IMG/VR virus record: IMGVR_UViG_3300045988_161200 | Length of the DNA: 64,000 nt | Reading direction: 5' to 3' (one strand) | Origin: a virus | Shown: positions 54 to 38,830 of the stretch, piece by piece | How positions within the stretch are numbered: position 1 is the first letter of the stretch | Layout: each line of letters opens with the position of its first letter | Translations under genes and position numbers: made by a program | Notes under the pieces: model-generated | Seen by the model: the letters and a program-made list of their open reading frames with translations, nothing else | Told to the model about the DNA's origin: nothing | Databases searched by the model: none

Positions 54-124
54 CCAAAGAGATGGGATTCGAACCACATACCTACCGCTTTCGGCGGTTG
101 TTCTCACCACTGAACTACTCCTGC
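54..124 (-). tRNA. degenerate tRNA-like element (possible pseudo-tRNA)
   Basis: Reverse strand reads GCAGGAG-TA-GTTCAGTGGTGAGAAC...GGTTCGAATCC, a Gly-tRNA-like body. The anticodon arm is only 15 nt (ACCGC-CGAAA-GCGGT), the T stem has a bulge, and the top two acceptor pairs mismatch. Confidence 0.35.
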
Positions 125-14284: not shown

Positions 14285-14512
14285 AATAATATCCTCCTAT
14301 AATTCTGAAATTTGAATTTTATTAAGCAATTTTTCCGCTCTGAATAAGCCCCGCATTATTTATTCCTTCATATTATTTCCTACTTTGAATTTTCCAACTT
14401 TGACAGTCTTATTCAGACTGTCAAACGCTCAGAGTTTAATGGACTGTTTATAGCTACTCAGACAGCTTAATCAAATCGTGATTTTATCCATACACTACTA
14501 CATTTAATTATA

Positions 14513-16750: not shown

Positions 16751-16946
16751 TGTGCAATATGTTTCATTATATAAGTCCTCCTATCAAATACACGTTTTAT
16801 TTTTTAGCTGTCTCCCACTATTGCGAGAGACTAACAGCTTACAGCCGTTTAACCGCGCTGTTATGCTTATTGTGCATACCTTACGGGGGAAAATCCCCCG
16901 TAAACGCTCAGAGCCTAAATGCCTTTTTATACACGCCCTGACGTGT

Positions 16947-34595: not shown

Positions 34596-34979
34596 ATGCT
34601 GAAAATAAAGTCTCATAATACATATCCTACAACAGAAATGTTAGTTGGTGATATTCTTAATGATGTCAAATGTAAACTAAACGTGTCTGTAGTAGCACAG
34701 GGAGATATTGTGAAGCCGATTATAAAGGCAATGATGAATATTGACGATATAGATATTCAGCTTCTTGACTATGATTTCTACGACTATGGCGGTGAATATT
34801 ATATTGATATCGTTTGGAATAATAATATTCCTGAACTCTGGGTCGAGAAGGCTTGGGATGATGAAATCAGTAGATATCTTGGTGGTGAAGCTGATTTTTA
34901 CTATGTAGCATCTGATACCAGCACAGATATGTATAAGTATCTTAATGGTCTTGGAACTGTGTTCTCTATTGAAGAATAA
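34596..34979 (+). CDS. hypothetical protein
   Basis: 127 aa with a GAGGTGG RBS. Confidence 0.65.
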   Translation: MLKIKSHNTYPTTEMLVGDILNDVKCKLNVSVVAQGDIVKPIIKAMMNIDDIDIQLLDYDFYDYGGEYYIDIVWNNNIPELWVEKAWDDEISRYLGGEADFYYVASDTSTDMYKYLNGLGTVFSIEE

Positions 34980-34995
34980 TTAAATAATAAATGTT

Positions 34996-35033
34996 AAGAC
35001 GGTGGGTCGCAATAGTGGCTCACTGTCTTTTTA
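34996..35033 (+). terminator. intrinsic terminator
   Basis: AAGACGGTG...CACTGTCTT followed by TTTTAT. Confidence 0.7.
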
Positions 35034-35034
35034 T

Positions 35035-35104
35035 TGCGAGTTGGTCTAATGGTAGGATTAGGGTCTCATAAACCTTAGATTTACGTTCAAGTCGTAAGCT
35101 CGCC
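35035..35104 (+). tRNA. tRNA with CAU anticodon (Met, fMet or Ile2 type)
   Basis: Anticodon arm AGGGT-CTCATAA-ACCTT, T arm TTACG-TTCAAGT-CGTAA, acceptor GCGAGT/GCTCGC, GG in a short D loop. The ends are uncertain by 1 nt. Confidence 0.7.
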
Positions 35105-35109
35105 CCCAA

Positions 35110-36075
35110 ATTGGCAGTTCTCGATAATCTGCTGTTAGTAGCTCTGTCTGCGGACAACTGAGGTCAAAGTAGATATGCGTATCAAAATGGCTAAATCAAA
35201 TATGAAGTGAAACCAACACTCTTTAAATAAATGGTAAAAACGGAAAATATAAAACAATAATAAACTTGTTTGTAAGAAAGATGCTTGCATTTTCCCATTT
35301 TCACTACCGTTTGTGAAGTTTATTCGTCCAGTCGAGGGTGGAATGACGTTAAACTCTACCCTACCATAATGGTTCTGAGAAAATAATTATCAGAATTATG
35401 TTTGCAATAACCCCGATGAAAACGGTTGTCAACCTTTTGGGACATGATTATAATGAATGTTTATGGAACGATAGTTTTATAAGCAAGTCAACTTTGTATA
35501 TGAAAGTATGCAAGATGAGAGGGAAATCCTCAAATTTAGTTGTGGTGCTAAGAGTTATCGCTTCAAAATGCACAGAGCTTATCGCTGTGGTAATAGACGC
35601 TTCTGTGAAGAATAAGCCTTATACTAACGAGTGGTATCGCAAAGTCACTAAGGTAATCCAAATCAACACAGTCTGTTTTGATGCTTGAGAAATCAGGCTA
35701 TAAGGTAAGTCGCTGGTAAAAGTAGCCATATGACAGTATTGGGAACAAATCTTTTCTTTTTTGATGATTTTTTAAAAAAATTTCAAATGCTGAATGACTG
35801 GTGAAATTTGTGTATAACCAATTACACACAAGCTTTGAGAGAAATCTACGGTAAGAAGCTATGGGGTCGCTACCTATAGTTCAGCCTTATCGTCTTGGTG
35901 GCTGAAAATTGAAGAAGATAATGGAGGTACGGCGAAGGTCGTATTGCAGGCATAATTGTGGGAATTGTTTTTCTTACTGAAAACAAATAAAAATATCCCG
36001 TTCTGTGTTGGTGTACAAAACGAGATATATGATAAATGCTTGAGATAATCACGAATAAACAATACTGAAAGGATA
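35110..36075 (+). ncRNA. candidate large structured RNA (about 1 kb without credible ORFs)
   Basis: No ORF has an RBS. GC is visibly higher than in the flanks. There are many local helices, e.g. TTCTGA/TCAGAA at 35371, CACAG/CTGTG at 35571, CAGCC/GGCTG at 35882 and ATATCCCGTT/AACGAGATAT at 35992. It sits directly after a tRNA. Confidence 0.35.
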
Positions 36076-36081
36076 GTTATA

Positions 36082-36384
36082 ATGCTTGAAGTTTTACAAT
36101 ATATTTTTAGTAGTTTTTGGATATGGTTGGGGTTTACGATAATAATCCTTATACCCTTTTCAGCTCTAAAAGAGCCTATTATTAGAATATCACACGGTAT
36201 CGGAGGAATACTCAATCATAAAACTGAATGTTACCGTTTGGCAAGAGAACTCATTTTAAAAAACGATGAGTGGAATACTATACAAAAAATAAGCTATATG
36301 TATCAAATAAGAACAAAAAAGGGATTTGACAGTTTTATAGAGGAACATCTGACTTCCAAATATGTTGATAGTCTCTTTAAATAA
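36082..36384 (+). CDS. hypothetical membrane protein
   Basis: 100 aa with an N-terminal transmembrane segment. AAAGGA RBS. Confidence 0.55.
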   Translation: MLEVLQYIFSSFWIWLGFTIIILIPFSALKEPIIRISHGIGGILNHKTECYRLARELILKNDEWNTIQKISYMYQIRTKKGFDSFIEEHLTSKYVDSLFK

Positions 36385-36387
36385 AAA

Positions 36388-37260
36388 TTACTCCTCAACA
36401 TGATAACCATTTTTCTTATAGTATTCTGATATTTTAGAGATTAATAAAGGGTCTTTTTTATCTGACATACCTTCATGAAGTATTTTAACAAGTTCTTCGC
36501 CACAAGAAGTATATGTAACTACACCAATACGTATTTCCCCATCACTTGAAACGATATTAATTTTTTTACCATAATAATTCATTATTAATAAATCTGCTTT
36601 TTTATATAATATGGTGCCTACCGAGGAATTGTAATTTATCAATCCTAAGCTCGAACAATTTGTTAAGTATTCATAATTGATATATTTATCATCATAAACT
36701 TCCAACTCATCTTTTGTAACATCTGGATACAAAAAAATAGGAGAATATTCCTTATCTGCAGGATTAAAACACATTACTGAGTGTGAACATAAGTACGAAA
36801 AATATTCAGCATCTTTTGAGTTCATAACTTGAAGGACTTGAAGGAGCTTTTTACTAATCGAATTTTCATCTTCACATTTCGATGCAAGAATTTTTGCCCA
36901 AACAGTTTGCATATCTTGGTTAGATACATTTTTAGATATATCATCATACATTCCAAGCCATTCGTCATCAACTGTTGGAAGTAATTTTTCTAACGATTTT
37001 CCTTTACCACCAAGCATTGAATTTGCAATATTATAAATATTTGCATTGTTCATAATCTCCTTTTTAATTTTGTTCAAATTACGCATTATGACATACTTTT
37101 CCATAGGATTCGTGTTTGGATCATGCTCTATTTCATCAAGTAACAATTTATTGGCTCTATATGTTGGACTAGCAGATAAAAGTTTATCAATGAAACCACT
37201 TCCTTCTTTTGCAACATTAAGTGCTTTTTCTGCCACTTCTAAGCCATCTTTAACTGACAT
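36388..37260 (-). CDS. DUF2806-like protein
   Basis: DDEWLGMYDDISKNVSNQDMQTVWAKILA resembles the DUF2806 signature as recalled from memory. Confidence 0.55.
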   Translation of the reverse strand: MSVKDGLEVAEKALNVAKEGSGFIDKLLSASPTYRANKLLLDEIEHDPNTNPMEKYVIMRNLNKIKKEIMNNANIYNIANSMLGGKGKSLEKLLPTVDDEWLGMYDDISKNVSNQDMQTVWAKILASKCEDENSISKKLLQVLQVMNSKDAEYFSYLCSHSVMCFNPADKEYSPIFLYPDVTKDELEVYDDKYINYEYLTNCSSLGLINYNSSVGTILYKKADLLIMNYYGKKINIVSSDGEIRIGVVTYTSCGEELVKILHEGMSDKKDPLLISKISEYYKKNGYHVEE

Positions 37261-37653
37261 AAATATTTCATCCTTTCAATGTAATAAATCTTAAGTTTTT
37301 ATATCGTATAAAAATCGTGATTGTTTATATACAAGTTATTAGTAATTAAGTTATTTATAGCATATCACTTTTGTATAATAATTACAATAGTTTTCACAAA
37401 TTAGTAATGTAGAAAAATCTGCAGATAATTTATTGAGATATTACAAAATAGACATTTTTAGGTTTTTAAATATAGTTGTAGGGATTAAGCTGACAATTTT
37501 TAAGTCTTATAAATATATGTTTGTTTTAGGGTAATGGCTTAAAACAGATACTATAATAAAAAGATAAATTGGAATGATTAACCAGTCGAAAAAGTTTATT
37601 ACATTTACTGCTATTTAATACAATTAATTATAATCAGAGAGGAGATGTTAATA

Positions 37654-38640
37654 ATGGCTGAAATGAGTAAAAAGATTCGTGTTTATGATAAAAAGATACT
37701 CAGTGAAATAAATCCTGAAACAATAAAACTTTGGAATAAATATAAGATAGATATGTCTCTTAGAGAATTATCAGAAAAGACTATTGCTGGTTATAAAAAT
37801 GACTTAGAACATTGGTGGATTTATATTTATAAAAATCAAGGAAATCAGTCTGTTACTGAATTAACAGAAGATGATATTACTGAATTTCTTTATTTCTGTA
37901 AGACACAGGGCAATAATTCAAGACGTATGAAACGTAGAATGGCTTCCATTTCTGCATTTTATAAATATCTCCGTAAAAAGAAACTTATAGCTGAAAATCC
38001 CACTGAGTTTTTAGACAGACCTAAGAAAGATACAGATGTTATAACTCAGACATTTTTAACTCTTGAACAAGTTCAGCAGATGAGAGAAATTTTACAATCT
38101 TTAGTTGATAATGCTGAAACAAATAACAGAAAGCATAGAGCATTGCAGTATCAATGTTATGCTCTATTTTCTTTGTCTACAATGGCAAGAGTCAATGCCG
38201 TATGCAATACTCGTTGGGAACAGATTGATTTTAACGAAAGAACCGTAAATGATGTTCTTGAAAAAGAAGGTTATATTGTAACTTTGTATTTTTCTGAAGA
38301 AGTTAAAGGCTTACTTGAAAATCTTATGGCTTATCGCAAAGAAAACAACATTGATGATAATGGATATGTATTTGTTTCTTTTGTAGATGGTAAGTATGAT
38401 AAGACTGCAAACAGTACATTAACCGAATGGTGTCATACCATTGGTAAAATGTTTAGTGTTCCAACACTACATCCACATGATTATAGACACAGCGGGGCTA
38501 CGCTATATAAAAATGCTGGAATGTCTCTTGAAGATGTGTCAGCACTTCTTAATCATACAGGAACAGATGTTACAAGAAAATTTTATATTAGAGTTGATAA
38601 GAAAAAGATAAGTCAGAATAAAGATAGATTTGACTTCTGA
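37654..38640 (+). CDS. tyrosine recombinase/integrase (XerC/D-like)
   Basis: ARVNAVCNTRWEQIDF (R), HPHDYRHSGAT (HxxR) and LNHTGTDVTRKFY (H...Y). GAGAGGAG RBS. Confidence 0.85.
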   Translation: MAEMSKKIRVYDKKILSEINPETIKLWNKYKIDMSLRELSEKTIAGYKNDLEHWWIYIYKNQGNQSVTELTEDDITEFLYFCKTQGNNSRRMKRRMASISAFYKYLRKKKLIAENPTEFLDRPKKDTDVITQTFLTLEQVQQMREILQSLVDNAETNNRKHRALQYQCYALFSLSTMARVNAVCNTRWEQIDFNERTVNDVLEKEGYIVTLYFSEEVKGLLENLMAYRKENNIDDNGYVFVSFVDGKYDKTANSTLTEWCHTIGKMFSVPTLHPHDYRHSGATLYKNAGMSLEDVSALLNHTGTDVTRKFYIRVDKKKISQNKDRFDF

Positions 38641-38830
38641 TATAAAATAACATCGTCTCACAGCAGACACCTTAAAAGACATAGTGGTTTACCCACACAA
38701 TACAAAACAAAATGTCGGAATAGAGACTATAAACCTATTCCATTGTAGAAGGATACTACTAAAAACCGTAAAGGTTACTGCACCTAAAGCAGTTTTATAT
38801 AGGGGTTACGGAAACCGTCTAAAAACCGAG

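Follow-up and report, generated by a model that had tools for sequence, protein, structure and literature searches.

Identification of a ROOL RNA gene

In the 64,000-nucleotide (nt) stretch of viral DNA deposited as IMG/VR record IMGVR_UViG_3300045988_161200 (this whole stretch is the window in the following), positions 35388-35960 of the plus strand are very probably a ROOL RNA gene (Rfam family RF03087) of a temperate Firmicutes-type phage or prophage, lying 279 nt 3' of a tRNA-Met gene on the same strand, which is the best explanation of the locus as a whole. Previous inspection of the bare sequence (the original prediction) had singled out about 1 kb between this tRNA gene and the next protein gene as a candidate large structured RNA, possibly belonging to the GOLLD or ROOL class or to a new one, and had proposed a cmsearch with the Rfam models of large RNAs. 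In a search of the full window with the Rfam 15 models at their gathering cutoffs, ROOL was the single large match, with model positions 1-574 of 574 aligned to 35388-35960 (not truncated, 317.5 bits, E-value of 3.3e-72) against a gathering score of 99.1. Among the classes proposed, ROOL is thereby supported, whereas a new one is not. GOLLD was not found at its gathering score in the window. When 34900-36500 was rescanned at a relaxed threshold (E ≤ 5), no significant family was obtained beyond ROOL and the tRNA, that is, no GOLLD, OLE, HEARO, raiA, intron or other large RNA, and the leftover matches to snR77, FTX_2, L20 leader and sR52 (E between 0.3 and 4.5) are far under their own gathering scores. 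The RNA is 573 nt long, compared to a family mean of 581 nt (Weinberg 2017, PMC5737381), and folds better than shuffled sequences, with a minimum free energy of -155 kcal/mol (z = -3.8, 0 of 100 shuffles).

With the family-consensus motif CTGAATGNNNNGTGAAANTT, which is present in the window, 119 stretches were pulled from IMG/VR viral contigs (referred to by L numbers below), and about 80 of them were recognised by nhmmer with the window's ROOL as query. Closest are L101, L088, L042 and L117 with 86-99% identity over ROOL, followed by L094, L119 and L008 with 67-71%, the remaining relatives being more distant. All 20 viral-contig loci rescanned with Rfam gave full-length ROOL matches of 290-355 bits, and the relatives measure 561-651 nt as delimited by Rfam. 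The score of the window's ROOL, falling mid-range in this set, is therefore typical, and the element is a full-length, ordinary copy of a known family and not a new kind of RNA. Blastn in 'distant' mode with the whole region gave no match among 50,697 phage records, and an exact 24-mer of the window's ROOL subgroup was not found in the cellular genomes of the GTDB collection.

Conserved fold and long-range helices

The window's ROOL and 20 Rfam-delimited homologues were aligned with plain MAFFT (alignment A2, 750 columns, not fitted to structure), and the Rfam consensus structure was projected via the window's row, giving 156 pairs, 126 of which are canonical in the window. Across the alignment, 71.1% of the cells form standard pairs, compared to 53.3 ± 0.6% in column shuffles (0 of 500 reaching the observed value) and 38.8-48.2% in slid controls with partners moved by 1-3 columns. 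The covariation score amounts to 0.473 versus 0.192, and changes on both sides are seen in 123 of the 156 pairs. The covariation check on related phage loci, as envisaged in the original prediction, is thus positive, and the conserved multi-junction fold of ROOL is supported by compensatory changes. In the closing helix P1, 16 of 16 pairs are canonical in the window and all 16 change on both sides across homologues, at 77-96% paired. The full architecture of the family is present and comprises P1 joining both ends, a multi-junction core, a variable AU-rich linker and two covarying long-range helices flanking this linker (Table 1). The linker itself is unalignable between homologues, lacking conserved sequence or structure, and its equivalent in the solved structure is disordered and faces the cage interior (PMC12286853).

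The two long-range helices emerged from a mutual-information screen of 51 non-redundant ROOLs, in which the nested pairs of Rfam rank top and two non-nested helices, PK1 and PK2, are also found. PK1 connects the loop of the second hairpin with a strand just 3' of the linker and is 92.9% paired in A2, with U-A/C-G exchanges at 12:7 and A-U/G-C exchanges at 9:6. PK2, between the 3' flank of the linker and an internal loop of the long 3' hairpin, is fully paired (100%) across 21 sequences, U-A exchanging for G-C at 14:7, and the window has the G-C form. Together, both helices are 96.8% paired in A2 versus 22-34% when slid, values which refer to data overlapping with those used for discovery, and both are intact in the window. 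By analogy, PK1 probably corresponds to the intermolecular loop-bulge contact L2 x L13' of the solved octamer of Enterococcus faecalis (Efa) ROOL (PMC12990946), and PK2 matches the pseudoknot of 'J17/18 with flank of the linker' described for ROOL (PMC12286853). A further conserved element is a hairpin loop with self-complementary GC core, reading TCGCT in most sequences and TAGCT in a minority. It may provide the symmetric loop-loop contact by which the two half-cages are joined, and would then correspond to L18/L15 in the solved structures.

Table 1. Positions of the ROOL gene, its structural elements and the flanking features in the window.
Feature	Position	Strand	Remarks
tRNA-Met, anticodon CAT	35035-35108	+	ARAGORN; Rfam tRNA 42.4 bits, ending at 35105
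Spacer tRNA-Met to ROOL, 279 nt	35109-35387	+	non-conserved, no Rfam match at E ≤ 5
Lineage-specific insertion in spacer, 88 nt	35237-35324		clean junctions; absent from L101, L088, L117
Weak sigma-70-like promoter candidate ATGACG-16-CATAAT	35343-35370	+	consensus match only, about 18 nt 5' of ROOL
ROOL RNA gene	35388-35960	+	RF03087 match, covariation, nhmmer and Rfam homologues in about 80 viral contigs
Closing helix P1, 5' strand	35394-35409	+	pairs with 35942-35957, 16 canonical pairs
PK1 strand GUCA, loop of second hairpin	35428-35431	+	pairs with UGAC 35795-35798
Variable AU-rich linker	35731-35788	+	model insert/loop region; unaligned A2 columns about 444-530
PK2 strand GCUGA, 3' flank of linker	35789-35793	+	pairs with UCAGC 35881-35885
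PK1 strand UGAC, just 3' of linker	35795-35798	+	partner of 35428-35431
Hairpin loop UCGCU, family U[C/A]GCU, self-complementary GC core	35867-35871	+	A2 columns 651-655
PK2 strand UCAGC, internal loop of long 3' hairpin	35881-35885	+	partner of 35789-35793
Closing helix P1, 3' strand	35942-35957	+	pairs with 35394-35409
T-run TTGTTTTTCTT, 8 nt after P1	35965-35975	+	possible 3' end of transcription unit
Hairpin, 14 pairs, then TTTTTATTTGT on minus strand	35993-36028	-	intrinsic terminator of leftward transcripts, outside ROOL
100-aa gene, hydrophobic N-terminus, small membrane protein by inspection	36082-36384	+	next gene of the original prediction

Expected assembly and integrity of the locus

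ROOL RNAs assemble without protein into hollow cages about 28 nm across, which are held by kissing loops and A-minor contacts and have been solved as D4 octamers for env-120 and E. faecalis ROOL and as a hexamer for Lactobacillus salivarius ROOL (PMC12286853, PMC12515178, PMC12990946). From these solved homologues and the conserved contact elements, cage assembly should also be expected for the window's ROOL, in which copies would dock via A-minor and loop-loop contacts to give a hollow homo-oligomer (hexamer or octamer) of about 28 nm with the linker directed inward. An unlikely alternative is that this genuine ROOL acts in cells as monomer or ribonucleoprotein, for example, as ribozyme or protein sponge, and that the cage is an in-vitro state. 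The question of an artefact has been raised in a 2026 review, and Efa ROOL is also obtained as monomer and tetramer after refolding (PMC12990946). However, ROOL octamers stay assembled at 12.5 nM and at temperatures of up to 55°C (PMC12286853), and the intermolecular contacts are conserved or covarying. The helix between L2 and the linker flank covaries in the present data, although reported as intermolecular in the solved structure.

Several observations weigh against this explanation of the locus. Of the model pairs, 30 of 156 (19%) are non-canonical in the window, some of them representing one-base register shifts of the covariance model alignment. Only two long-range helices were recovered from the 51 sequences, compared to three pseudoknots in the ROOL consensus (Weinberg 2017, PMC5737381). 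Regarding expression, the promoter candidate would start transcription about 10 nt before ROOL; it matches the consensus at 9 of 12 positions, and 15 such sites occur in the scanned region versus 9.6 expected, which is near chance. The candidate is identical in close relatives, which is uninformative at that level of identity. Moreover, a strong terminator-like hairpin (34996-35029, plus strand; 15 pairs with 7 G-C, followed by TTTTATT) stops 5 nt short of the tRNA-Met 5' end and makes read-through from upstream uncertain, so that tRNA and ROOL either rely on read-through or have their own start. At the other end, the T-run following P1 was not scored as terminator by the terminator scan. Finally, deletion of ROOL in L. 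salivarius did not result in a growth phenotype (PMC5643018), and any functional statement is consequently conjecture.

Could the locus be a relic, recognisable by sequence and no longer functional or expressed? Besides the non-canonical pairs, the single tRNA at 279 nt distance in place of a tRNA array and the insertion just upstream of ROOL are in line with decay. Nevertheless, we consider this very improbable, as the score lies in the middle of those of 20 phage ROOLs, P1 is fully paired and both long-range helices are intact, one of them via a compensatory G-C. In addition, four independent contigs keep ROOL at 86-99% identity while their flanks recombine, and the 68 invariant alignment columns all include the window, the latter by construction. 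The window's locus is a complete, constrained ROOL gene.

Extent of the structured RNA

The structured RNA accounts for only 573 of the 976 bases flagged originally, the remainder being taken up by the spacer with its insertion, the T-run, the minus-strand terminator and the leader of the gene for the small membrane protein. That a different or new class of large RNA (GOLLD or other) spans the whole interval of about 1 kb between tRNA and next gene is hardly credible, although helices had been drawn throughout and the four closest relatives share the spacer. In addition to the lack of any GOLLD or other family at relaxed threshold, relatives of 67-71% identity align over 35401-35966 only, so that the borders of the conserved unit coincide with those given by Rfam, and conservation of the flanks is limited to very close relatives. 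A tRNA-Met followed by ROOL is also present in L101 (distance of 192 nt), L094 (62 nt), L112 (128 nt) and L084 (280 nt); in the latter three lineages, the spacers of 62-280 nt have unrelated sequences and do not surpass shuffles in folding. Likewise, the spacer in the window is conserved in near-identical relatives only, and 88 nt of it are missing in some of these. A second structured RNA or a degenerate tRNA within the spacer was also considered and rejected due to lacking Rfam matches, fold z-scores between -0.5 and -1.1 and absent conservation between lineages. The 88-nt insertion has no second copy in the window or in the 119 loci and shows no target-site duplication, which argues against a repeated or mobile element.

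Of the five helices drawn in the original prediction, 35992-36030 alone has comparative support and lies outside the RNA: it is the conserved hairpin at 35993-36028, in which compensatory changes in L117 result in a perfect palindrome. A role as ROOL terminator was discarded, since only the minus strand carries the T-run. The other four, including 35371-35393, lack such support. Helix 35238-35315 is located within the insertion absent from L101, L088 and L117, and the bases of 35571-35589 and 35882-35905 are paired elsewhere in the conserved fold. The elevated GC content ascribed to the region is real but mild with respect to the window mean (35.7% for the region and 37.0% for ROOL versus 32.6%). 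It is at the level of the adjacent coding DNA (33-39%) and is higher only in comparison to AT-rich intergenic DNA (21-29%).

The proposed 16-nt direct repeat does occur in two copies, ATGCTTGAGA-AATCA at 35681 and ATGCTTGAGATAATCA at 36036, which, however, share 10 exact bases, a 1-nt indel and then 5 bases. Whereas the copy at 35681 is a conserved hairpin of ROOL with GAAA loop, the copy at 36036 is unable to form that hairpin. Considering also that the second copy is conserved in L117 no better than its surroundings, a functional pair was rejected, and the repeat is probably chance or a vestige. The word ATGCTTG is found at 35281, 35681, 36036 and 36082 of the plus strand, that is, four times within about 800 nt, with 12 occurrences on this strand of the 64-kb window. 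At 36036 it starts a 10-codon mini open reading frame (ORF; MLEIITNKQY*) similar to how the 100-aa gene begins (MLEVLQY...), perhaps as a remnant of a duplicated gene start or by chance.

Coding potential

In line with the original prediction, no credible protein gene is present in the 973 bases between tRNA-Met and the next gene (35109-36081). Mechanically, ORFs of 96 aa (35398-35688, plus strand) and 113 aa (35874-36215, minus strand) as well as of 60, 51, 45, 43 and 41 aa can be called, and a Pfam search with these seven sequences gave no significant match, the 113-aa ORF reaching a sub-threshold match to DUF3177 (E of 0.014, 15.7 bits versus a cutoff of 25). The 96-aa frame is interrupted by five stops in L101 and L117, at DNA identities of 86-96%, and neither an ATG nor an open frame exists in the 18 other homologues. 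Hence, the idea that the region is or was a protein gene, for which the mere existence of these ORFs and the DUF3177 match might be taken, can practically be dismissed, since in addition substitutions track base-pairing and not codons and the 113-aa ORF runs antisense over the real 100-aa gene. Both ORFs are spurious and ROOL is non-coding, and homologues do not reveal the degraded protein gene that the original prediction had named as contrary evidence.

Flanking elements and phage context

The tRNA-Met is not of the initiator type, as judged by inspection from its G1-C72 pair. Downstream of P1, homology to L042 (93% across ROOL) ends at about 35974 directly after the T-run, so that the functional unit probably extends to about 35977. 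The 100-aa gene is intact in L117 at about 86% DNA identity, with differences mostly in third codon positions (by inspection of the alignment, uncounted), and is thus probably a real gene; its product has no Pfam or PHROG match.

The ROOL locus is surrounded by phage genes on both sides. Upstream, genes for a PIN-PhoH protein, an Mre11-like exonuclease and an HU protein are encoded, and a 127-aa gene ends at 34979 ahead of the hairpin preceding tRNA-Met. Downstream, the small membrane protein is followed by a DUF2806/Abi-alpha protein on the opposite strand, a tyrosine integrase, an HNH endonuclease, the large terminase and the portal. The latter is at most 31% identical to portals of Brevibacillus phage Sundance, SPbeta-like and Bacillus phages, which are large Firmicutes siphoviruses, and a protein search of the GTDB genome collection with the large terminase did not yield a confirmed relative. 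Low GC content and relatives point to Firmicutes, and the carrier appears to be a temperate phage or prophage of this type. The DUF2806/Abi-alpha-like gene (36388-37260, minus strand), located between ROOL and the integrase, is a candidate for a prophage abortive-infection or exclusion function.

Compared to L042 (615-1667 versus 35975-38646 of the window), the block of small membrane protein, Abi-like protein and integrase is replaced by a different tyrosine recombinase, with 21% identity at the N-terminus, which directly follows ROOL. The sequence of L101 (from about 7362) departs from that of the window about 21 codons into the 100-aa gene. From the mosaic breakpoint right after ROOL and the other recombinase in L042, it can be deduced that ROOL resides at a recombination-prone boundary with the lysogeny module. 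With its lone tRNA-Met and spacer at this boundary, the locus combines an ordinary architecture with a slightly unusual placement.

Elsewhere in the same phage, two matches to the Pistol self-cleaving ribozyme are found about 2.4 kb apart on the minus strand (16874-16946 with 66.2 bits and 14393-14467 with 45.9 bits; gathering score of 34.5). Moreover, a minus-strand tRNA cluster is located at the start of the window (57-122, 324-399 and 470-543), including tRNA-Lys(TTT) and tRNA-Gln(TTG) and a third tRNA-like element (39.8 bits in Rfam), which was not seen by ARAGORN.

Maturation and possible role

In relatives with tRNA arrays, ROOL is always on the same strand as the tRNAs, with no case of opposite orientation. 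In L007 (5524-6321), L032 (4800-5547), L035 (4225-4925) and L028 (5338-6050), tRNAs abut both ROOL ends within -8 to +6 nt, and in L084, L016, L056 and L017 a tRNA-like element starts directly after P1. Such an arrangement, frequent in related loci, bears on the maturation of the RNA, as tRNA-processing enzymes could define the ROOL termini. Other RNA matches in ROOL-bearing tRNA arrays (L056 10084-10167, L016 187-276, L032 4296-4438, L005 2457-2836 and L112 2471-2553) comprise partial OLE matches, which exceed the gathering score slightly (53.5 and 52.9 bits, model positions 436-595 only), a skipping-rope RNA and matches to tmRNA models. The partial OLE matches are probably spurious or tRNA-like.

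For the window, a precursor step can be envisaged in which ROOL is part of a longer transcript, either read through from the tRNA-Met region or begun at the weak promoter candidate. For L. salivarius ROOL, the promoter has been located 225-450 nt ahead of where the mature RNA begins (PMC5643018). Subsequently, the precursor would be trimmed to a nuclease-resistant core closed by P1. Where tRNAs abut both ends, as in many relatives, RNase P and RNase Z would excise ROOL, and in the window's lineage the 3' T-run is present instead. In L. salivarius, the mature RNA is extremely abundant and stable (PMC5643018). As a speculative function, the cage might act on translation-related cargo, such as tRNAs or ribosomes, to the benefit of the phage. 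A function has not been demonstrated for any member of the family.

The close abutment of tRNAs at both ends of P1 in several phages also gives rise to a more specific proposal, which we regard as tentative and rather doubtful, namely that ROOL is a product of the tRNA-maturation pathway acting on tRNAs, with the cage storing, shielding or displaying phage tRNAs, for example, against host anticodon nucleases. If so, the window's lineage would represent a derived, independently expressed prophage version, characterised by the lone tRNA-Met, the spacer, the T-run and the vicinity of integrase and Abi-like gene.

Irrespective of its role, ROOL ranks with the largest and most elaborate RNAs of bacteria or phages, and only a few other natural RNAs are known to form closed cages in the absence of protein. 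The present locus shows constraint on the 573-nt core and the two linker-flanking helices, not on the flanks. It adds a well-delimited new example, carried by a large Firmicutes-type temperate phage that has close relatives in metagenomes, and no new principle for the family.

Comparison with known systems

With other members of the ROOL family, the window's RNA shares the full-length model match, the near-average size, the multi-junction fold closed by P1, the variable linker, two long-range helices and the phage location by a tRNA on the same strand. Its sequence is only about 50-70% identical to most of the other ROOLs fetched, and unlike those in tRNA arrays it lies by a single tRNA with a 279-nt spacer and without a downstream tRNA, placed at the lysogeny-module boundary with integrase and Abi-like gene. 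GOLLD is similar in being a large ornate RNA of phages and prophages near tRNAs which forms RNA-only cages, and env-38 GOLLD is likewise located downstream of tRNA-Met. However, GOLLD differs by unrelated sequence and fold, a length of 700-830 nt and assembly into 10- to 14-mers. The pRNA of phage phi29 resembles ROOL as a phage-encoded RNA oligomerising by intermolecular loop-loop pairing, but it has only about 120-174 nt, forms a ring on the portal within the packaging motor, possesses a known function and is related to ROOL neither in sequence nor in structure.

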